Positions 3,355-23,117 of a DNA stretch of 64,000 bases are shown here, piece by piece. This DNA is from Escherichia phage phiEc_1. Position 1 is the first letter of the stretch, and every line of letters starts with the position of its first letter. The position numbers were made by a program, and so were the translations under genes. The notes below the pieces were generated by a model. That model worked only from the letters and a program-made list of their open reading frames with translations, had not been told where the DNA came from and ran no database searches. The stretch lies in sequence record LC768462.1; one strand, given 5' to 3'.

Positions 3355-4413
3355 TTACGCCGCCACCTTTCCCGCGGCAGTGAACAGAACGCCGGAAGCG
3401 TACGGGTTGCGGTGACGCAGACCAACTTCCATTTCAATCATCCACTTCTCGTAAGAACCGTCTTTAGCCAGTTCAGTGCGTTTCGGAGCACGCAGAACCA
3501 TCTGAGTCCAGTCAGCGCTACGGAAGAAGTAAACTGCATCGGTAGGCATCCAACGGTTAACGATGATTTTGTAGCTCTGGCCCAGCGGGTCAGTGATGCT
3601 GTTAACTTCGTAGATGAACTGCTTGGTGTTCTCAAAGATACGCTTACGTGAACCCTGAGTATTTTCTTGCAGACCAGCGAAGATCTTAGCATGAGCCGGG
3701 TTAATCATGATGATATCTGCTTCAGAACCAGCGGTATACAGTTGCAGAGTCATATCAAAGATATCAGCTTCGTCAAAACCAATGTTAGTGGTCGGGTTAG
3801 AAGCATTCTGTGCAACTTTAACAGTTACTGCACCAGTATCCGGGTCAGCAGGACCATTCTTGGTCTTGTCAACAACGCCACCAGCAAGACCACCGTGAGC
3901 ACACAGGAACTGGAATGCACCAGTCTTACGAGCTGCATGAGTGTCGTTCAGACCAACAGTTGCAGGATCAGTTGCAGAGTTAGTCAGGTACTGATCAGCC
4001 AGAACGTCGGTACGAGCCTGACCGGACAGAAGGATTTTCTCGAGGTCACGCTTGATCTCTTTACCTTTCTTCTCCAGCTGATACATCAGTTCACGACCAC
4101 GACCGTAGTTAGCGGTGGTGTTAGCAGTATCAGAAACACGAACAACCTTACGCAGAATCTGAGTAACGTTAGATTTGATAATAGTCGGTTTCATTTCGCC
4201 GTCTTCAGCACGAGAGCCTTCGACGTGTGCGTTATTACCGTCAACGCTTGCCAGTGCATCGGTCTGCCAGCTAAAGATAGTCTGGTTGATAGACTCTTTA
4301 CCGGTCATAGATACGAACGGGGTATCCTGAGGGGACAGAACAGAAATCCAGTTAGCAAAAGAAAGTTTTTTACCATTCTGGTCATACGATACAAATAAAG
4401 TTGGATTAGCCAT
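3355..4413 (-). CDS. major capsid protein
   Basis: 352-aa ORF directly downstream of scaffold gene; strong SD; position and size typical. Confidence 0.8.
   Translation of the reverse strand: MANPTLFVSYDQNGKKLSFANWISVLSPQDTPFVSMTGKESINQTIFSWQTDALASVDGNNAHVEGSRAEDGEMKPTIIKSNVTQILRKVVRVSDTANTTANYGRGRELMYQLEKKGKEIKRDLEKILLSGQARTDVLADQYLTNSATDPATVGLNDTHAARKTGAFQFLCAHGGLAGGVVDKTKNGPADPDTGAVTVKVAQNASNPTTNIGFDEADIFDMTLQLYTAGSEADIIMINPAHAKIFAGLQENTQGSRKRIFENTKQFIYEVNSITDPLGQSYKIIVNRWMPTDAVYFFRSADWTQMVLRAPKRTELAKDGSYEKWMIEMEVGLRHRNPYASGVLFTAAGKVAA
3367..3373 (-). other. candidate -1 slippery heptamer G_GGA_AAG
   Basis: X_XXY_YYZ heptamer in capsid frame 6 codons before its stop; -1 frame continues into Ig-like ORF. 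Confidence 0.45.
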
Positions 4414-5776: not shown

Positions 5777-8020
5777 TTAGTTTTTACTTCCAAGACGTTT
5801 GCCTGGAATCCGTGAATCTTTGAGAGAAGCTTGTTGCTCTTTCTTAGTTACATTAGCTTCTTTCTTTTGGAGTTCCAAAGTTTTATCCTGAACACGAGCT
5901 TGCTGAACAATCTTCTCTTGGTCTACCTGATGAGACATAACCATCTGCAATTCTTTCAGTACAGATTCATACTGACGGACCTGCTGTTGCATAAGAGCTA
6001 ACTTGTGCTTAGCTTGTTCCAGAGTAGCATTGTTATCTTCTTTACGGTTTTCCAGAGTCATTGCATCTGCTGCATTTTCTTGCTTGAACTGCAACTCTTC
6101 CTGACGCAGACTTAATTCATCCGCAGCTTTCTGCTGTTCGAATGTAGTACGTTCACGTTGGTCGAATGCATCAGCAATCATCTTCTGAGAAGAAGCCTGT
6201 ACGTTCTCAACCTGTGCTTTAGTCATCTCGAGCTGGAGGATTTCCATCGGAGAAGGTTCTGGAGGCTGATACTGTTCCAGAGGCAGAAGGTATTTATGTG
6301 TGTCCTTAATGCCCATCAACTCAAAGATCTGTGCAGTCATGTAACGATCTTGCTCCAAACCAAAGAGAGGCGCTAACTGTGCATCTGCTGCAATCAGCTG
6401 TTTCAAGCTAATCAGTTTCTGTGCACGTTCTGCTTTCTCATTAGGAGAGATAGCTACAACAACTTGAAGATTGTGACGAGCTGGCAGTTGTTTTGGATTT
6501 ACCTGAATCATACCACGAGGGGTTTGTACCTCGATAGGAACTTCACCATTTTCTCTGATAAGGTTGTAAATACCACGCATCAATTCAACCATACCGTTGT
6601 GAGCAATGTTACGACATACCATACGGAGGCGGTTCTGTGCAGCATTCATCATCAAGCCTACAGTTGCATAAGCGTTATCATTCTTAAACACATCAGGGTT
6701 GATACCCATGCCTAGTTTGGTTACACCTGTACGTGTCTCTTTAAGCTCCTCAGACATGCCTAGGAGGCCGTCAATACCTTGAGGTAGGTTATGGTATGGG
6801 AACAGGTCAATAGCGTCCTGACGTTCCATTTCAACCACTCCACCGGGACGGTTATCAAGCAGAGAGCGACGGTCGTATGCACCAACAAGAGCTTTGTATC
6901 GACCATAGTTAGCATTGTTGACGTTATCAATATAACCACGAACTAACGCGGTACGTAAATCTTGAATATCTTTCGTAATGTCATAGACCGATTGACCATA
7001 GAAGGAGCCTGGAATCGGATACGGACAGAAGGTTACAAACGGAATGTGAGTTACTTCTTCAGTGTGAAGGATATGCTCACCAGCTTGAATAACCTGATAG
7101 AGTTTAGACTCTTTATTCTTATCTAGAACACCAGTACGAATGTAGTGCTCGTAAACCCAAACCATAGAAGCAATATCTTCGGTATCTGTACCAATATCAG
7201 CATCAATATCCTGACGCCAGTCAGTACGAGACCAAGCAACTGTAGATTGAGTAGTATCCATCGTGTCTGTCCAGTCGTTGAATGCTTCAATCTCGTCTTT
7301 AGGGAAGCCCATAGCAACCAGATCTTCTTTAGAACGACGAACACGATGACAGAAGTATTGTGCATCTGCAAAAGAGGTAGCATGTTCGTCAACAAAGATT
7401 TGCTCTGAAGGGACATATTCAACTTTCACACGTTTAACAGTTTGTTCGTAAGTAACTTTAACATCCACTGTACCATCTTCATTTTCTTCAGTGAAGATTT
7501 CCAGATTCTTGAGTCCACCAGCTTCTAATCCCTGAACATATGCAGCCAATGCTTCCGGTGGTACACCTTCAGCTTCTTCAGTTTGAGTAGAAGTTTGTTC
7601 ATCCCAATAATACTTGATAAAAGAGTTACGAGTAACTAGACATTCTTGTGCAGCAGAAGAGATAATATTGTATCCCGGATTATCACGCAGAAGAATTTGG
7701 TTAACTAGTTTAGTTGCTACATCAGCAGCATCAGAATCCTGTTGGTTGTCAGCTACGAAAGTAACTGCTTCATCACCAGAACAGAATACGTTAATAATAT
7801 CTTGCAATGTACCGTTAACAGATTCCCAAACAGTACGATCTACCCAACTAGAGCTGCCAGCAGTTACTGGTGCAGGTAAGTTACCATAGAAATATTCCCA
7901 AGCTTCACGAGCATAGCCCTTAACAGCCATGTCCACGTAACCTTGAGCGTAATTAAAACGACGTTGAAGGTCAACACGTAACTCGTCCAACACCTCTTCA
8001 CTATATTTTTGCTTAGCCAT
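5777..8020 (-). CDS. portal protein
   Basis: 747-aa ORF immediately downstream of terminase large subunit; C-terminal coiled coil. Confidence 0.7.
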   Translation of the reverse strand: MAKQKYSEEVLDELRVDLQRRFNYAQGYVDMAVKGYAREAWEYFYGNLPAPVTAGSSSWVDRTVWESVNGTLQDIINVFCSGDEAVTFVADNQQDSDAADVATKLVNQILLRDNPGYNIISSAAQECLVTRNSFIKYYWDEQTSTQTEEAEGVPPEALAAYVQGLEAGGLKNLEIFTEENEDGTVDVKVTYEQTVKRVKVEYVPSEQIFVDEHATSFADAQYFCHRVRRSKEDLVAMGFPKDEIEAFNDWTDTMDTTQSTVAWSRTDWRQDIDADIGTDTEDIASMVWVYEHYIRTGVLDKNKESKLYQVIQAGEHILHTEEVTHIPFVTFCPYPIPGSFYGQSVYDITKDIQDLRTALVRGYIDNVNNANYGRYKALVGAYDRRSLLDNRPGGVVEMERQDAIDLFPYHNLPQGIDGLLGMSEELKETRTGVTKLGMGINPDVFKNDNAYATVGLMMNAAQNRLRMVCRNIAHNGMVELMRGIYNLIRENGEVPIEVQTPRGMIQVNPKQLPARHNLQVVVAISPNEKAERAQKLISLKQLIAADAQLAPLFGLEQDRYMTAQIFELMGIKDTHKYLLPLEQYQPPEPSPMEILQLEMTKAQVENVQASSQKMIADAFDQRERTTFEQQKAADELSLRQEELQFKQENAADAMTLENRKEDNNATLEQAKHKLALMQQQVRQYESVLKELQMVMSHQVDQEKIVQQARVQDKTLELQKKEANVTKKEQQASLKDSRIPGKRLGSKN

Positions 8021-8081: not shown

Positions 8082-9623
8082 TTAGTAACTCTGATTCCAT
8101 CTGCTTACGTTTGCCTCATACAGAGAAGCACTTCCGTAGCTAACGTCATGCTTAGAGCGACCACGATGTGTAACAGAGCACGCTGAATAGCGCATTGCAT
8201 CCATTAAGTCATCATGTTCTTTAATAATCTTACCAACCTTACGGTGATATCTAGCTTTCTCTTCGAATAGCTTAGCGTTAGCGGCTGTGTTAAAGATTTT
8301 AAAGCGTCCACTCATCATTCTTTCTCGGATATCTGTGATTCCCGGTTCTACAAAGAAGTTCTTTTTACCATCCATTCCAATTTTGTTGTAGAAGGTCTCA
8401 CTCTGTACGTTAACTCCTGCATTCTTATAGAATTGAGCAACAGATGAACCACTACCTTTCTCAATATTGTCCGCATCATGCGGTAGGATGACAGGAATCC
8501 ACTGACCACGACCATTAATAGCTGGAGCATGATACACTGGAGTAAAGCCACCTTCTTTATACGAGTCGTAAACATAGATAGTATCAGTGTTTGCATCGTA
8601 AGCTGTCCAAACAGCAGCAGTTGGGTGATCAATACCAATATCAATTGCACAGACACGTTTCCACGTATCAGGAATTTCGAATGGTTCACATTTAATTGTG
8701 TCATCCGATACATCATATATCAAACCACTTCCTAACAATGGCATACCTTTCGAACGCATCTCTAACTGCCACGCTGGAATACCTTCAGTCATATCTTTTA
8801 TATCTTGGTCAGTGATGTGTCCACCTAGGTCTGCATGAGCATCCCACCAAGAAGCATTCTGGAAATATAGAGAACCTGTGTTCTCATCCCCTTCACCTTT
8901 CATAAATTTATCTACCAGTTCAGTTAAACCGTTCTCTGGTGTAGCTGTAATTGTAACTAGACCTTTAGTTGTGAGTGTACGTGTGACGCACTGTGCGAAT
9001 ATAGCCATAGACTCGTATGGATCTTCTTCGTCTAACCAAATGTAGTCAACTGTTGCACCCATCAATGTGTGTTCACCCTGTTGGGTTGAACGGAATTCTA
9101 ATGTACTTAAACCGTCAAACTCTCCTCTTTCGTTTTGATGTTTGATTTGTACGATTTGAAGTTTGTTACCATCTCGTTCTATCGTGTCAATGACGATAGC
9201 ATCACGAGGAATGACACCTGTCCCTAATAAATTTGTATCCTTTCCGATAGGTGTACCAAACAACTCCTTTTGCAATACTTTCCTTGTGGAATCCCCTGTA
9301 ATACCAACTGCCCATGCTAAGATAGGTCTTTTAAATTTATACCCTGTCCACCAAGTTGGGTAGCGACCTGTGACATGACAAGCAAACTCGTATGCCTCGC
9401 TATAAGATTTACCAACACGGTTCGCTGCACACAAGAATCTAAAGCGATGCTTCAATCCTGCTGCATAAAATTTCTTTTGGAAGTCATACGCCTTGAAAGA
9501 CAAAATCCTATTATACTTCCTCCATTGGTCACGCTCTTTCAACATATTCAATAGTGCTTTCTTTTCATCTACACTAAGATTGTTACCAGTTAGAGCTTCA
9601 TAAATTTGTTTATCTAATGACAT
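8082..9623 (-). CDS. terminase large subunit
   Basis: 513 aa; Walker A-like CAANRVGKS; size and position upstream of portal. Confidence 0.85.
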   Translation of the reverse strand: MSLDKQIYEALTGNNLSVDEKKALLNMLKERDQWRKYNRILSFKAYDFQKKFYAAGLKHRFRFLCAANRVGKSYSEAYEFACHVTGRYPTWWTGYKFKRPILAWAVGITGDSTRKVLQKELFGTPIGKDTNLLGTGVIPRDAIVIDTIERDGNKLQIVQIKHQNERGEFDGLSTLEFRSTQQGEHTLMGATVDYIWLDEEDPYESMAIFAQCVTRTLTTKGLVTITATPENGLTELVDKFMKGEGDENTGSLYFQNASWWDAHADLGGHITDQDIKDMTEGIPAWQLEMRSKGMPLLGSGLIYDVSDDTIKCEPFEIPDTWKRVCAIDIGIDHPTAAVWTAYDANTDTIYVYDSYKEGGFTPVYHAPAINGRGQWIPVILPHDADNIEKGSGSSVAQFYKNAGVNVQSETFYNKIGMDGKKNFFVEPGITDIRERMMSGRFKIFNTAANAKLFEEKARYHRKVGKIIKEHDDLMDAMRYSACSVTHRGRSKHDVSYGSASLYEANVSRWNQSY

Positions 9624-9784: not shown

Positions 9785-10258
9785 TTAACTCTCGTCCGCT
9801 TCCTCCCCCTTTTCAGCGTCCTCAGAGTCGTCTTCTTCTGGAGGCATAACGTCGATACCAAGTGCTCCAGTCAAGAAGTCCTTGATTTGTGCATTCAATG
9901 ATTCTTCGTTGATTACATTCTCTTCCTCAATCTTAACTTCAACAGAGGCCGCCTTAGGATATACCAGATCTGCAACTTTTGATGCAGCCTTGAATCTAAG
10001 ATCAGGTGGAATATTAGGATCTTCGTAAATTTGAATTAACACTTCATCAGGAGACAAATGACTTGCAGCAACACGGTCCAACATTAATTGTGTCAGTTTA
10101 CCTCTACTACCTCTGGGTCGTCCGAATTTATTTCCCTTTTGAAACTTCCCATTGCTTGGGTTCATACCGCGGCTTTCGAGTTCTTCCGTTACTCCGGGTA
10201 ATCTTCCTGTAATCTCAGCTACCTGTGCAGGCGTGAGTTCTCCGTTTTCTCCAAACAT
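9785..10258 (-). CDS. putative terminase small subunit / DNA-binding protein
   Basis: 157 aa, basic GRPRGSRGK segment and acidic tail; immediately upstream of large terminase. Confidence 0.45.
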   Translation of the reverse strand: MFGENGELTPAQVAEITGRLPGVTEELESRGMNPSNGKFQKGNKFGRPRGSRGKLTQLMLDRVAASHLSPDEVLIQIYEDPNIPPDLRFKAASKVADLVYPKAASVEVKIEEENVINEESLNAQIKDFLTGALGIDVMPPEEDDSEDAEKGEEADES

Positions 10259-10280
10259 TTTATACTCCTTCTACATTATC

Positions 10281-10314: not shown

Positions 10315-10947
10315 TTACTTACAATCACCAACGGACAGGTTAAACATCTTACCTAGAGCAATCGTCTCACCTTCCCACGGAAGTTCTGCACCCTTCTCTT
10401 CCTCTAAAAGAATAGAGCCGTCGACCAAAAATTTTTCGTAGTCTCGCAGTGCGTCGTCTACTAGCTCACTCTTGTGAATCCACGTAATTGTTTCTGTACC
10501 ATCCTCTTCGATTCTAACATCACGATGCCATTCATCTTTGGAGGTAATATAATCATGGAGCATTTCGTATTCAGCTTCTTCAATCATCTCAATCATTGCA
10601 CGAGCATAGTCAGGGAGGTGATCATGTTTAGTAGATTCGTATTCAACTACTTCCAGAGTAGATGGTTGTGTTTTAGTTTTAGAATCAGGGCGAGTGGTAT
10701 GAATCAAATCTAACATGTTTTTGTTCTCCGTAATATTTGGTTTAAGAATACTTCCACTATATAAATCTTGTACAGCCAGTCCTGAAATATTTCCCATAGT
10801 TTCTAAATGCTGTAAGCTACAACCAGAGCAACATAGCTGTGAATTATAGTCAACCATGTCCATTGCTTTGATGTGGAAAGGAGAACCAGAAGGGAAACTA
10901 CCTCCATAAACACCTTCCATATTAACTGCGATTATTTGATTATTCAT
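10315..10947 (-). CDS. hypothetical protein
   Basis: 210-aa ORF. Confidence 0.55.
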   Translation of the reverse strand: MNNQIIAVNMEGVYGGSFPSGSPFHIKAMDMVDYNSQLCCSGCSLQHLETMGNISGLAVQDLYSGSILKPNITENKNMLDLIHTTRPDSKTKTQPSTLEVVEYESTKHDHLPDYARAMIEMIEEAEYEMLHDYITSKDEWHRDVRIEEDGTETITWIHKSELVDDALRDYEKFLVDGSILLEEEKGAELPWEGETIALGKMFNLSVGDCK

Positions 10948-11194
10948 CTGTCTCTCCCTTGCTGTAATCTTTGTATGTTTCTACTTTGTAAGTGCGGAAT
11001 GCTCTGAAGAAGAGCCAACCAAAACTACTTACATCAATTGTAATATCGAAATCTGTTTCATCATCTAAATCAACAAGACGACCTAAGCATGTAGCTTCCA
11101 TCACTTCTTCAGAGTCACTGTTGATTACAAAAGCGTATGTCTCCGTTCTGAACCGAGGCACCATCTCTGATAAAAAGTCTAATACTAAATTCAT
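10940..11194 (-). CDS. hypothetical protein
   Basis: 84-aa ORF overlapping previous by 8 nt. Confidence 0.35.
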   Translation of the reverse strand: MNLVLDFLSEMVPRFRTETYAFVINSDSEEVMEATCLGRLVDLDDETDFDITIDVSSFGWLFFRAFRTYKVETYKDYSKGETDE

Positions 11195-11214
11195 AATCCT
11201 TCTCCTCTGAATAA

Positions 11215-11435
11215 AAGTATAAAGGGCACATCATAAGACCTACCCGTAAAGGCCACCTCACATTAACACCCGTGAGAATACCTGTATTCATTTTCGTAGT
11301 CTTCTTCAGAGAAGCTACCGTATTCATCTTCTGTCATACATCCCTCTGATAAAGTTAAGACATAAAGGGGACGTCATCTTTGATGACTACTTCACATTAA
11401 GGCACCCCCATAAAGGCCATGTCACGTTAAGGCCT
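11215..11435. repeat. iteron-like repeats, at least 4 copies of TAAAGG(G/C)(C/G)AC.TCA
   Basis: copies at ~11220, 11246, 11362, 11410 in divergent intergenic region next to terminase genes. Confidence 0.5.
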
Positions 11436-12309
11436 ATCCATCCATGTGCTGTGTTTAAGCTTTCCACATTTACTACATCTCCAAGTGGACTTATAAAGGG
11501 TGTGAACTCTTTCATCCCCGTAAGCTTTGCGTATCCGATAGTACTCATGATCACATTTGAATTGCTTAATGATTAACTTAATTTTCCACATAAGTTCTCT
11601 TTCAACCTTATATATAAGAGTTTAAAATTCTGATTTGACCGAGTGGACCTAGCCGCTTCCCGCGTGTTTCCTAAAAAGGGGGAGTCCTCATTTAAAAAAG
11701 GGTTATTGGCAATGCCTTTAAGCCCATTCCCACGTTCCAACCTTTCCCCGTGCCTACTCCCCGTAATTATTCCCCCGTGTATACCATCCTATTCATTAGC
11801 TACCCGTTTATTTAGTTCCCCTTTAAAGAGTGAGAGAAAGGCCAGCACTGTACAGGCACTACCATAAGAGAGCTAATAATACCCATAAGTAATAGCTCAC
11901 ATCCCCCATAGTTACGTTGATAATAGTTTCAATAGTAATGATTATGAGTGCAATAATGATGTATGTATTAATTAAGTGGAAAGATTATGTTTGATGTTTA
12001 TTATATTCTTTTATTACTTTCTTTTTTCAGCGTTCTTTTATTCTTTTCTTTTAACGTTCGATGTGTATGAGTTTACATTAATAGTTAACTAATTATTTAA
12101 GTGGTATATTATTACCGCACTATCTTGCATGTTTCCCCGTGGTCTGTTCTGCGGTTGTTGTATCCCCGTTTGTCCTGGTCTGTTGGTCTGTTACCCGTAG
12201 TGTTATAAAGTAACAATATCTAGTAAGCTGATTCTCTGAGTATGGAAAGTTTAGTAAATTAAATTCCTTTAGTTTTCAGTGAGTTATAGGAAAGTTAGAA
12301 AATAAATGG

Positions 12310-12337
12310 TTGACAGCCTTTTCCTTTATTATATAGT
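12310..12337 (+). promoter_or_regulatory. sigma70-type early promoter
   Basis: TTGACA-16 nt-TATAGT with A-rich upstream, 45 nt before first early ORF. Confidence 0.65.
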
Positions 12338-12381
12338 TGCGATTGTAGTTTGTAGTTTTCATCAACCATAAGGAATATCAA

Positions 12382-13254
12382 ATGTCTAAAGTAGCAATTA
12401 ACCACTTGAACAAAGCAAACGAAAGCCTTTCCTCTTTAGGCTTAACCGTTGGTAGTCCTGATGCGTGGATGGAAAACGAAAGTGCACGTAAAGGATTCAA
12501 AAACTCAATCATGTTGGCTTGCTTGATCATCAATTCTACTGCGAACGCTTTACAGTGTGAAGATGAAAGCACGTTCAAAGAGAACGGTTTTACCGATATG
12601 CAGGACGCTATTAATTGCTACATTCAGGCTAATTTAGATAGCTGGAATCAGAAAGATTGGCCTGAGTCGTGCCGTGATGTGAAAGCTGAATTATCCCGCT
12701 TGTCTGTCATGGTTGAAGCATGGAACAAGAAAAACAAGAAACAGCCAATCAAGCCTACTGTTGCAAGTAAGATTATGAAGTCTGTTAATCTGGCAAGTTA
12801 TGCACTGGTTGCAGCTATTGGTGTTAGTGCACTGGTCACATCTCTTTCTGATAAGGCTATCGCTAGTCCTACTCCTGCAACTGATGCCGCTGATGTTTTC
12901 GCTAGTTCCATCAATAAGGGTTGGATGATTTGCAACGGTGCGGATAGTGATGGAAGTACTATTGTATTAAAAATGAAGTTTAGCAACGTAACTAATGATG
13001 GCGTTCTCTTTCAGTCTAAGACACTAGACAATCAGCCTAACAATGATCTAGTTCTCAAGCGCACCGATAGTGACTCGGATATGGTTACATTTGGCACTGT
13101 ACAACGTTACGAAGACGTTAAAGCTGTAACCAATCTAGTGAGTTATGGTCCGGTTAATGAGTCGATGATCGCCACTACCGTTTATAATAACGCTGATAAC
13201 GCTGTTTATACCGTTCACGTTAATTTAGCCAACTGCATTAAGGCTAGTAAGTAA
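12382..13254 (+). CDS. early protein, hypothetical
   Basis: 290-aa ORF after strong promoter; one hydrophobic segment. Confidence 0.7.
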   Translation: MSKVAINHLNKANESLSSLGLTVGSPDAWMENESARKGFKNSIMLACLIINSTANALQCEDESTFKENGFTDMQDAINCYIQANLDSWNQKDWPESCRDVKAELSRLSVMVEAWNKKNKKQPIKPTVASKIMKSVNLASYALVAAIGVSALVTSLSDKAIASPTPATDAADVFASSINKGWMICNGADSDGSTIVLKMKFSNVTNDGVLFQSKTLDNQPNNDLVLKRTDSDSDMVTFGTVQRYEDVKAVTNLVSYGPVNESMIATTVYNNADNAVYTVHVNLANCIKASK

Positions 13255-13891: not shown

Positions 13892-14257
13892 ATGGGTGTT
13901 ATCAAGTTTGTAGTGAAAGTATTTGTAGGCTTCTTTCTGGTTGTTCTCCTGTTAGGTGTCCTGCTGTCATCTATGGGTAGCGTTAAGGCTGCAACATTTT
14001 CCCCTGATACGGTTGACGGTTTACAGTGCACCTATTTGATAGAAAACTATGAAACTGGTAAAAAGTCACCTAAAGTTATTATTTTACATGTGAATGATTT
14101 CGAACATGTACAATCATACGATAAAACTATTCAACTGGTAAATGAAACTACCGGTAAACAAATTACGGTGGATCACTTGATGCGCTCATCGTTGACGCTC
14201 TTTGATGAGTCCATGAATGAAATGGCATCCGGTAACGGTCAATGTGTAAATCCATAG
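13892..14257 (+). CDS. membrane-anchored/secreted protein
   Basis: N-terminal hydrophobic segment FVGFFLVVLLLGVLL. Confidence 0.55.
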   Translation: MGVIKFVVKVFVGFFLVVLLLGVLLSSMGSVKAATFSPDTVDGLQCTYLIENYETGKKSPKVIILHVNDFEHVQSYDKTIQLVNETTGKQITVDHLMRSSLTLFDESMNEMASGNGQCVNP

Positions 14258-23022: not shown

Positions 23023-23095
23023 GCGCTCTTAGCTCAATGGATAGAGCAGTAGCCTTCTAAGCTATTGGTTACAGGTTCGAGTCCTGTAGGGCGCA
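23023..23095 (+). tRNA. tRNA-Arg (anticodon UCU); CCA encoded at 23096-23098
   Basis: hand-folded cloverleaf: 7-bp acceptor stem, D-arm, anticodon loop CU-UCU-AA, T-arm ACAGG-TTCGAGT-CCTGT. Confidence 0.9.
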
Positions 23096-23117
23096 CCAAA
23101 TCTAATAGGAGGTAATT

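Follow-up and report, generated by a model that had tools for sequence, protein, structure and literature searches.

The 64-kb stretch of Escherichia phage phiEc_1 analyzed in this study (hereafter, the window) is a phiEco32-like (Kuravirus) coliphage genome that was closed as a circle in the assembly. Comparison with relatives supports region 11215-12300 as the place where both physical genome ends would meet in this assembly, i.e., a collapsed concatemer junction. We consider it highly probable that this is a Kuravirus junction belonging to linear virion DNA with a 193-bp direct terminal repeat (DTR), that it would be processed in T7 style, and that its short repeats form a candidate binding lattice. 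Genome ends of this junction type are already known from close relatives, and the region is therefore largely ordinary. The features are listed in Table 1.

Table 1. Features at the genome-end junction of phage phiEc_1 and the neighbouring terminase genes (positions in the window)
Feature	Position	Strand	Basis or remark
DTR homologue, 193 bp	11651..11843	no strand	blastn against phiEco32 ends, borders matching exactly
Repeat within DTR, CCCTTTTTTA-N10-CCCCCTTTTTA	11672..11701	-	Read from sequence; begins 21 nt from DTR border
Four (T/C)CCCGT motifs in DTR	11745..11807	+	At 11747, 11760, 11774, and 11803; spacing 13, 14, 29
Inverted 14-bp unit, one mismatch	11812..11825	-	Inside DTR near predicted left genome end
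DTR flank, left-arm side	11592..11650	-	Conservation 0.89 versus 0.81 in neighbouring gene
54-aa CxH...CxxC zinc-ribbon-like early gene	11427..11591	-	Homologue of phiEco32 gp1 and SU10 CDS1
Four 14-bp iteron-like units	11220-11233, 11247-11260, 11363-11376, 11411-11424	+	Gene (minus) strand reads TGAnnTSSCCTTTA
Optional cassette, 24-aa acidic mini-ORF (MTEDEYGSFSEEDYENEYRYSHGC)	11263..11337	-	Translation; bounded by iteron copies
AT-rich conserved non-coding block	11904..11980	no strand	Internal CAATA(GT)AATGAT direct repeat; conservation 0.91
T-rich variable-length tract, TTCTTTT repeats	11981..12095	+	Lowest GC in region; conservation 0.54
Conserved right-end block	12096..12198	+	Three YCCCGT (12136, 12165, 12194; spacing 29, 29) interleaved with three GGTCTGTT
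Early sigma-70 promoter TTGACA-16-TATAGT	12310..12337	+	11/12 consensus positions; serves gp128 homologue 12382..13254 (+)
Candidate small terminase subunit (TerS-like; phiEco32 gp6 homologue)	9785..10258	-	Directly upstream of TerL
Large terminase subunit, TerL	8082..9623	-	Pfam Terminase_6N and Terminase_6C; phrog_2
Left arm (predicted)	11843 to lower coordinates		Weak left-end promoter, 54-aa gp1-like gene, 14-bp-unit array
Left arm, further in			gp4- and gp5-like genes, then TerS-like gene, TerL, portal gene
Right arm (predicted)	11651 to higher coordinates		Repeat, ~470 bp conserved non-coding DNA, early sigma-70 promoter 12310, early genes

Direct terminal repeat and genome ends

The identical phiEco32 positions 1-193 and 77362-77554 aligned end to end with window positions 11843-11651 at approximately 90% identity in a blastn comparison. 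The DTR is present in one copy in the 64-kb window, because the assembly merged its two copies, and this single alignment at 11651-11843 is what points to a collapsed concatemer junction in region 11215-12300. In virion DNA, the left end would correspond to 11843 and the genome would extend from it toward lower coordinates; from the right end, at 11651, it would extend toward higher coordinates. At least 80% of the DTR was covered in 65 phage records. Many records begin at the DTR border, including at least 10 GenBank Kuravirus records that start exactly at the equivalent of window position 11843/11842, and two of the boundary-starting records, YF01 and Paul, carry an annotated DTR (in Paul by PhageTerm). 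The proposal in the initial annotation that the region could hold the physical genome ends is thus supported both by the alignment to the phiEco32 DTR and by these record starts.

The terminal repeat was mapped independently in four relatives, namely phiEco32, SU10, Paul, and YF01 (PMC9965538, PMC4281155, PMC6787329). A sharp drop-off of 454 reads in SU10 indicated blunt ends with the repeat at both of them (PMC4281155), the terminal repeat of Paul was mapped with PhageTerm (PMC6787329), and full-length nanopore reads of YF01 carry the repeat at both ends (PMC9965538). From homology and the literature, the ends of the relatives are defined and non-permuted, unlike the circularly permuted, terminally redundant ends that headful (pac) packaging makes from a single initiation cut.

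The DTR is 90-97% identical to that of relatives, with a mean conservation of 0.88 among 14 relatives. Its best-conserved part (0.96) is the repeat at 11672..11701, which corresponds to the conserved '130-170' region of PMC9965538 and matches in position a T-run length heterogeneity in SU10 virion DNA (PMC4281155). The flank at 11592..11650 adjoins the predicted right-end cut site. Compared with the Kuraviruses phiEco32, SU10, Paul, and YF01, phiEc_1 shares the 193-bp repeat with its exact borders and this degree of identity, the T-run repeat 21 nt from the border, and the flanking gp1-like, gp4-like, and gp128-like genes with the early promoter. In contrast, the phiEc_1 assembly has the repeat as one internal copy, differs at two bases by the right-end border (11647-11648), and has a 14-nt longer T-tract and the acidic mini-ORF cassette.

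These ends bear directly on the earlier suggestion of a cosB-like terminase binding array, i.e., a lambda-type cos site in which an array of TerS sites lies beside a nicking site giving cohesive ends. Repeated short sites do occur within ~1.5 kb of the TerS-like gene, and the closest solved TerS relatives (PaP3 and NV1) belong to phages that have been classed as cos phages, PaP3 TerS binding a 20-bp site specifically (PMC7672466). The phiEc_1 junction also resembles lambda cos (cosN, cosB, and cosQ) as a concatemer-unit junction with cis-acting packaging signals and repeated possible TerS sites. However, cohesive ends would leave no duplicated sequence, and this contradicts a cos site, since the alignment runs end to end with a DTR found at both phiEco32 ends and since both the blunt SU10 reads (PMC4281155) and the YF01 nanopore reads (PMC9965538) place the repeat at both ends. 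The lambda genome has 12-nt cohesive ends and lacks a terminal duplication, whereas the homologous ends of the phiEc_1 relatives are blunt with a 193-bp duplication. Moreover, a gene separates the TAAAGG units proposed as the array from the repeat border, which is 230-430 bp away (11651, compared with 11424 and 11220). A cos site is therefore very improbable.

Gene content and promoters

As at the phiEco32 ends, one arm of the junction carries gp1..gp4 followed by the TerS-like gene, TerL, and the portal gene, and the opposite arm carries the early promoter and the gp128 homologue that it serves. The initial annotation had described approximately 1 kb without convincing ORFs, which proved incorrect for 11427..11591 (-). 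This is a real gene: its protein matches phrog_7696 (E 6e-17) and is kept in 15 genomes, and substitutions against a second clade are biased to codon position 3 (27:12:9 at positions 3:1:2). The truly non-coding stretch covers about 11592-12381 (790 bp), within which no stop-free stretch was conserved in frame or strand among relatives. A 23-aa mini-ORF at 12130-12201 (MFPRGLFCGCC...) was rejected, as its start codon or frame is lost in relatives. The Paul CDS that begins within the repeat continues in frame into the gp1-like ORF and probably has a mis-called start. Some relatives have ORFs annotated within the repeat, and these are probably spurious.

The promoter at 12310..12337, the only strong sigma-70 site found in the region, is the SU10 early promoter 'upstream of CDS125' (PMC4281155). 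A weak sigma-70-like promoter for CDS1 (GTCAAA-17-TATATA) was also proposed in Table S2 of the SU10 study and is located here within 11592..11650 (-); this left-end promoter was not detected in a strict promoter scan. Transcription in Kuraviruses relies on the host RNA polymerase and the sigma factor gp36 (PMC12276001, PMC4281155). The late-promoter motif of gp36 (AATGTA/TAATGTATA) was not found at the junction, the nearest copy being at 10270, and a search of the region for phage-type promoters found none.

With regard to RNA, a search of 10900-12600 against Rfam gave nothing at E<=1, the region contains no tRNA, and a terminator-like hairpin at 12137-12154 occurs at the frequency expected from chance. 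Folding of the 14-bp array region as RNA was not significant (z = -1.0), and as single-stranded DNA the repeat had less structure than its shuffled versions (z = +1.95). These null results give no support to hairpin-based signals. Taken together, neither coding sequence nor RNA structure nor promoters account for the repeat motifs described below.

Oriented repeat motifs

The CCCGT core occurs 10 times on the + strand and 0 times on the - strand between 11243 and 12194, where 0.34 copies were expected (Bonferroni 4e-9), and the largest cluster among 200 simulations had 5 copies. The short repeats reported in the initial annotation were all recovered at the positions given there, and each class is more frequent than chance would allow. 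Six of the seven window copies of CCCCGT lie within 11516-12169, all on the + strand and clustered beyond chance, and the other short sequence repeats correspond to GGTCTGTT, with all three window copies in this region (12141, 12177, and 12185). The TAAAGG-type units, reported as at least four at 11215-11435, comprise four exact copies plus the inverted one-mismatch copy at 11812-11825. The spacing of the (T/C)CCCGT motifs in the DTR is the same in 14 of 15 Kuravirus genomes, and motif columns in the DTR are more conserved than other non-coding columns (0.93 versus 0.77, p=0.0015). On the right-end side, conservation reaches 0.95 over 12096-12160. Two ACCCGT motifs (CCCGT cores at 11243 and 11269) are interleaved with the 14-bp units.

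The repeats are enriched (Bonferroni 1e-9 to 1e-10) and strand-exclusive, and 16 genomes preserve their copy number, orientation, and spacing; one of these is EP335, from another genus, which has 18 copies on one strand and 0 on the other. The non-coding blocks are better conserved than the adjacent gene, and the motif columns better than their surroundings. In the distant relative GAP52, neither a homologous junction nor any of these motifs was found. These observations leave hardly any probability for the view that the repeats are chance or compositional features without function. Counts of CCCCGT and GGTCTGTT over the whole window are indeed no higher than in shuffles, but almost every copy is confined to one strand of a 1-kb stretch, none of 200 simulations produced clusters this large, and number, order, and spacing are kept in the 16 genomes even where the flanks are at ~70% identity. 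In a limited search of the Kuravirus literature, we found no mention of the YCCCGT lattice or the 14-bp units.

The 14-bp units (TAAAGGSSAnnTCA) start at 11220, 11247, 11363, and 11411 (+), which are the only exact copies in 64 kb, and four units within 192 bp compare with a simulated maximum of 2. The array follows the gp1-like stop codon and precedes the start of the gp4-like gene. Relatives have 3-6 units per genome, arranged in tandem with a 14-nt period in DE5, Bas91, and MN05, and the TAAAGG columns are far more conserved than the surroundings (0.96 versus 0.58, p=3e-10). An M-x-(W/S/C)-P-L peptide reading of the unit was ruled out, because the wobble positions of CCT and TTA never vary; the constraint thus acts on the nucleic acid and not on a peptide. 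The cassette at 11263..11337 is missing in 8 of 14 relatives, and its mini-ORF is uncertain as a coding sequence.

Because the 14-bp units are set off from the repeat by a gene and border an optional cassette, a role in early-gene expression or recombination is possible instead. Under this proposal, they would be left-end early-operon signals (regulator sites, possibly for the zinc-ribbon protein) or boundaries of cassette exchange by recombination. The units lie exactly between small early ORFs, after the gp1-like stop codon and before the gp4-like ribosome-binding site; the 11263-11337 cassette and insertions of 49-133 nt in relatives are gained or lost at them; and they are conserved (0.96) within a mosaic region (0.62). 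On the other hand, they are confined to the genome terminus and absent from other early intergenic sites in 64 kb, some genomes have pure tandem arrays without intervening ORFs, and the units match neither the sigma-70 nor the gp36 (AATGTA) promoter consensus (PMC12276001). The non-significant RNA folding of the array also speaks against this role, which we consider a tentative minority possibility. The reading of the units as part of a lattice at the junction remains the preferred one.

AT-rich right end

GC content drops to 24.5% over 11900-12099, and the AT-rich tract with repeats noted earlier around 11990-12060 was confirmed as a T-rich repeat of period 13 with 4.3 copies at 11997-12053. 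The length of the T-tract varies among genomes, and the window has 14 extra nt at 12042-12055. The YCCCGT and GGTCTGTT repeats flank this tract, and the 14-bp units are approximately 550 bp or more distant.

T7-type primases recognise TGGTC-like sequences, and in the T7 origin, promoters are combined with an AT-rich segment. The non-coding right end (11904-12198) might accordingly be a replication origin, in which synthesis would start approximately 300-550 bp from the right genome end at an easily melted AT-rich tract between conserved blocks, with GGTCTGTT supplying TGGTC; a packaging role could coexist with it. The GC minimum, the flanking blocks that are conserved at 0.91-0.95 while non-coding, the three TGGTC within 50 bp inside the GGTCTGTT repeats, and the primase/helicase encoded by this phage family (PMC9965538) are consistent with an origin. 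So is the position of the cumulative GC-skew minimum in the window, 11907, which also fits the concatemer junction; the skew switch is not specific for an origin, because gene orientation changes and the physical ends lie at the same place. Against an origin, DnaA boxes occur at chance level (7 observed versus 7.4 expected in the window, one of them in the region), no family match among the neighbouring genes is Rep-like and no initiator gene is adjacent, the T-tract is poorly conserved and variable in length, and we found no origin of these phages described in the accessible literature. We give an origin at this position a rather low probability.

Terminase genes and comparison with other phages

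The initial annotation placed the repeats beside a small terminase gene. A TerS-like gene does exist at 9785..10258 (-), but it lies approximately 1 kb away, with two genes between. A family profile searched against PDB gave small terminases as its best two matches, both weak (7JOQ, E 0.0016; PaP3 6W7T, E 0.032), and the same assignment was made by the YF01 authors via profile-HMM comparison (PMC9965538). The protein had no Pfam match, a single-sequence phmmer search against PDB found nothing, and its AlphaFold model was poor (pLDDT 68, pTM 0.40), with no meaningful Foldseek match in PDB. TerL is 99-100% identical to Kuravirus TerL. In an identity comparison, the nearest TerL outside Kuravirus and related prolate-podophage groups is of the LUZ24 type (~39% identity), and members of this TerL clade make short DTRs, such as the annotated 184-bp repeat of the LUZ24 group.

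The LUZ24/PaP3-type Pseudomonas podophages (Bruynoghevirus) thus resemble phiEc_1 in TerS type and TerL. They have a 184-bp DTR, sigma-70 promoters reading inward from both ends, and short repeats (GATACC and CCCTAG) in and around the DTR that are less regular than the phiEc_1 arrays. Their sequences are unrelated, in contrast, and PaP3 was described as a cos phage (PMC7672466).

Like phiEc_1, T7 has a short DTR (160 bp in T7), one-way motif arrays inside the repeat and on both flanks, and early promoters reading inward from an end. The T7 array has 13 CCTAAAG copies in one orientation with spacings of 13, 25, 26, and 29, compared with 10 CCCGT on + and 0 on - in phiEc_1 with spacings of 13, 14, and 29. 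The two junctions differ in that there is no sequence similarity, the motif is another one, and a small gene separates the repeat from the left-arm array in phiEc_1. In addition, the phiEc_1 TerL, of the Terminase_6 type, is closer to those of LUZ24 and P22 than to that of T7, and Kuraviruses are without a phage RNA polymerase (PMC4281155), so that packaging dependent on such a polymerase does not apply to phiEc_1.

Proposed processing of the junction

In T7, packaging involves the cutting of concatemers at the repeat borders with duplication of the repeat. The mechanism proposed here was drawn from the T7 group, and the ends of phiEc_1 were placed by homology to relatives at 90-97% identity. 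Replication would generate head-to-tail concatemers with one repeat per junction. The terminase, consisting of the TerS-like protein (9785..10258) and TerL (8082..9623), would then recognise the junction and cut at both repeat borders, and re-synthesis of the repeat would place a copy at each end of the packaged genome. By analogy, such T7-style cutting at both DTR borders with repeat duplication is the most likely process. The SU10 authors pointed out that phiEco32-like phages lack a phage RNA polymerase of the kind that has been implicated in packaging by T7, and the mechanism of concatemer cutting and repeat duplication in this group was stated as unknown (PMC4281155). Without such a polymerase, the T7 scheme may not transfer.

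The YCCCGT, 14-bp TGAnnTSSCCTTTA, and GGTCTGTT motifs most likely form a putative lattice for an oligomeric protein that marks and orients the junction. We infer that the repeat arrays are probably protein-binding lattices, for which TerS would be the prime candidate, and binding of terminase by the repeats is possible. A more specific proposal, which is speculative and has perhaps one chance in a few, is that the YCCCGT lattice and the 14-bp units constitute a code read by a ring-shaped TerS or by the zinc-ribbon protein whose gene lies among the units, which would orient the cuts and duplicate the repeat without a phage RNA polymerase, the likeness of the 13-bp spacing to the T7 CCTAAAG arrays reflecting a shared principle.

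The practical value of these results lies in annotation: the assembly is circularly permuted and is better opened at 11843, its right end being completed by a second copy of the 193-bp repeat. Beyond this, the conserved, oriented, and terminus-specific arrays provide concrete candidate cis-sites whose layout and spacing parallel the T7 junction. If the recognition-code proposal is true, the 13-bp spacing in the long-unexplained CCTAAAG arrays of T7 would reflect a principle common to short-DTR phages.

Predicted genome termini

The region 10900-12900 matched 96 phage records by megablast, nearly all of them E. coli/Shigella phages of 75-79 kb, and the top matches were EK5 (94.8%), ShigP1 (94.0%), and TH06 (91.7%). 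The annotated records belong to the genus Kuravirus (Gordonclarkvirinae), the phiEco32-like prolate podophages. The window is oriented opposite to the phiEco32 record and carries a single tRNA-Arg (anticodon tct) at 23023-23098 (+), the sole tRNA usually found in this phage group.

In the phiEco32 record, both ends carry an identical sequence of exactly 193 bp. Alignment places its left-end copy at window 11842-10801 and its right-end copy at 11651-12600; therefore, the direct terminal repeat (DTR) corresponds to 11651-11843, exactly 193 nt. This segment is single-copy in the window, as expected if an assembler merges two terminal copies, and matched 95 records by blastn. The records of phiEco32, SU10, WFI101126, YF01, Paul, ES17, IME267, KM01, and CHD5UKE1 begin with the counterpart of window 11843/11842 at their positions 1-3, and that of YW01 starts a few bases further in. 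A DTR is annotated in the YF01 and Paul records, where it was present on full-length nanopore reads and detected by PhageTerm, respectively (PMC9965538, PMC6787329). In SU10, reads drop off sharply past the last repeat base, indicating blunt ends, and an internal CCCTTTTTTA-N10-CCCTTTTTTA repeat with T-runs of variable length lies 21 nt from the repeat end (PMC4281155). The same element occupies 11672-11701 in the window, at a distance of exactly 21 nt from 11651, and the cumulative GC-skew of the whole window reaches its minimum at 11907. On the basis of the phiEco32 end alignment, the single copy, the record starts and DTRs of relatives, the SU10-type T-run element, and the GC-skew minimum, 11215-12300 is, by homology, a collapsed concatemer junction predicted to hold the physical genome ends. 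Among the alternatives in the initial annotation, physical ends were thus borne out by homology, whereas a cosB-like array was not, since duplicated blunt ends are incompatible with a cos/cosB site of the lambda type. Genome ends of this kind have already been described for near-identical phages.

At 11646-11648, outside the predicted right-end cut, the window reads GGACC/TAGCC (slash, border), phiEco32 GTGCC/TAGCC, and most relatives GGGGC/TAGCC, which forms the palindrome GGCTAGCC. Because these sequences differ, the positions 2-4 nt outside the cut seem tolerant to change.

Conservation and coding content of the junction

Features of the packaging arm and the junction, with mean identity to the window across the junction alignment
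Feature	Coordinates	Strand	Mean identity	Remark
Portal gene	5777..8020	-		
Large terminase (TerL)	8082..9623	-		Pfam Terminase_6N/6C
gp6 homologue (TerS-like)	9785..10258	-		157 aa
Protein labelled 'ABC transporter'		-		
gp4 homologue		-		84 aa
gp1-like gene	11427..11591	-	0.81	coding
Flank	11592-11650		0.89	
Terminal repeat	11651-11843		0.88	
T-run part of repeat			0.96	
CCCCGT part of repeat			0.93	
Variable patch	11721-11741		0.50	
AT-rich block	11904-11980		0.91	
T-tract	11981-12095		0.54	
Conserved block	12096-12160		0.95	
gp128 homologue, then early genes	from 12382	+		

The junction was aligned across 15 genomes and scored by identity to the window. The conserved non-coding blocks exceed the adjoining real gp1-like gene in conservation, which points to a cis-acting DNA function. 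A possible iteron-type replication origin at the junction would be in keeping with the conserved blocks, the TGGTC-containing repeats, and the AT-rich tract but draws no support from DnaA boxes, which occur at chance level, or from the adjacent genes, none of which encodes an initiator. The poorly conserved T-tract is variable in length and forms a period-13 array, with GC down to 24.5%. Compared with all 14 aligned relatives, the window is longer by 14 bases (TTCTTTTCTTTTAA-like) at 12042-12055, which suggests that the length variation is slippage-prone.

The gp1-like gene contradicts the earlier view that the interval lacks convincing ORFs. Its 54-aa product, with a CxH...CxxC pattern, is conserved in 15/15 aligned genomes, matches phrog_7696, and corresponds to phiEco32 gp1 and SU10 CDS1; between-clade differences at codon positions 3:1:2 were 27:12:9. 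No ORF with a conserved frame or strand was found in 11592-12381. Some relatives have CDSs annotated in or across the repeat and the right-end non-coding DNA, namely Paul CPT_Paul_001 (1279-1590), a stop-free stretch in the repeat fused in frame to the zinc-ribbon (gp1-like) gene, and EK5 3635-3958, 4010-4108, and 4128-4265. These are not conserved as ORFs and are probably annotation artefacts.

The gp36 promoter motif was absent from the junction region. Its nearest copy, TAATGTAGA at 10270-10278 (-), directly precedes the TerS-like gene and corresponds to the SU10 late promoter at position 1480. Given this late promoter, the gp1- to gp5-like genes, between the motif and the repeat, would be early and the terminase genes late. 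The region has a single strong sigma-70 site, TTGACA-16-TATAGT at 12310-12337, which is the SU10 early promoter upstream of CDS125.

Oriented repeat arrays

All four repeat classes of the initial annotation were recovered where it had placed them and above chance, and its observation was largely right except for the missed gp1-like gene. In an unbiased k-mer scan, CCCGT/TCCCCGT ranked first in 11200-12300, where CCCGT occurs 10 times versus 0.34 expected (Bonferroni 4e-9) and 0 times on the opposite strand. Six plus-strand copies of CCCCGT lie at 11516-12169, out of 7 in the entire window. The largest clusters in 200 Markov simulations were 5 for CCCGT, 2 for TAAAGGSS, and 1 for GGTCTGTT, compared with 10, 4, and 3 observed. 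CCCGT columns are 0.93 conserved versus 0.77 for other non-coding columns (p = 0.0015), and all 15 Kuravirus genomes and EP335, from another genus (Nieuwekanaalvirus; ~70-73% identity to the window at the junction), carry 9-18 copies on one strand and 0 on the other. The conserved plan comprises two copies in the left-arm array, one in gp1, four in the repeat (spacing 13, 14, 29), and three in the right arm (29, 29); the copy inside gp1 may be only a protein constraint.

Across the EP335 record junction (NC_070979), ACGGG occurs 15-18 times in one orientation, the count varying with the stretch analysed, and 0 times in the other; ACGGGG is the most frequent hexamer there. Cronobacter phage GAP52 (JN882286) has ~2.4 kb of unannotated DNA across its record junction without Kuravirus motifs, including TTATCCACA (a perfect DnaA box) x4 and ATTGAGG x5, which may be an origin-like region in this more distant relative.

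Across the 64 kb, exact matches to the 14-bp unit TAAAGGSSAnnTCA were limited to four (11220, 11247, 11363, and 11411), and a fifth, inverted copy with one mismatch lies at 11812-11825, inside the repeat and close to the left genome end. Relatives carry 3-6 copies (TGAnnTSSCCTTTA on the gene strand), with three in tandem at a 14-nt period in DE5, Bas91, and MN05. The TAAAGG columns are 0.96 conserved versus 0.58 for their mosaic surroundings (p = 3e-10). A peptide reading, M-x-(W/S/C)-P-L, was rejected because CCT and TTA are invariant at their third positions across copies and genomes; therefore, the unit is constrained as nucleic acid. Searches for an RNA element at the units gave no Rfam match and a folding z of -1.0, and the repeat folded worse than shuffles as single-stranded DNA. 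The units border a cassette (11263-11337) present in 6 relatives and absent from 8, as well as 49-133-nt insertions in relatives. On the minus strand, the cassette holds a putative mini-ORF for a very acidic 24-aa peptide (MTEDEYGSFSEEDYENEYRYSHGC), with GAGGGA as its ribosome-binding site.

Implications for packaging

The analysis showed where the ends lie (by homology), that TerL is present, and that the arrays are non-random, conserved, and terminus-specific. A profile of gp6, built from 28 homologues and searched against PDB, had two small terminases as its best matches, 7JOQ (E 0.0016) and PaP3 6W7T (E 0.032), with alignments covering the oligomerisation core; the AlphaFold model of the gp6 homologue was of too low quality to compare folds. 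A profile-HMM comparison for YF01 agrees with this assignment (PMC9965538). A 121-aa early-region protein at 13892-14257 (+) is also called 'terminase' by PHROGs (phrog_13168) and several records, without Pfam support; with the packaging genes located on the other arm, this label is doubtful.

In the T7 junction, rebuilt from the T7 record, a 160-bp repeat is accompanied by 13 CCTAAAG copies in one orientation (2 before, 3 inside, and 8 after the repeat; spacings 13, 13, 13, 25, 26, and 29). The window shares this design, with similar spacing, although the motif is unrelated and the terminase lineage different. LUZ24, from the closest TerL clade whose ends are annotated, has a 184-bp repeat, sigma-70 promoters reading inward, and looser GATACC/CCCTAG repeats. 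By analogy with the T7 group, concatemers would carry one repeat per junction and be cut at both borders, and the repeat would be re-synthesised. The SU10 authors described the actual mechanism as unknown and pointed out that the phage RNA polymerase with an implied role in T7 packaging is missing from these phages (PMC4281155). PaP3 TerS forms a nonamer, carries nine helix-turn-helix motifs, and specifically binds a 20-bp site (PMC7672466), and a lattice of short oriented motifs would be a plausible substrate for a PaP3-like TerS ring. Neither the YCCCGT lattice, confined to one strand, nor the 14-bp units, confined to the terminus, nor their parallel with the T7 arrays is described in the accessible literature; the lattice and the 14-bp units provide testable candidate sites for the packaging mechanism.
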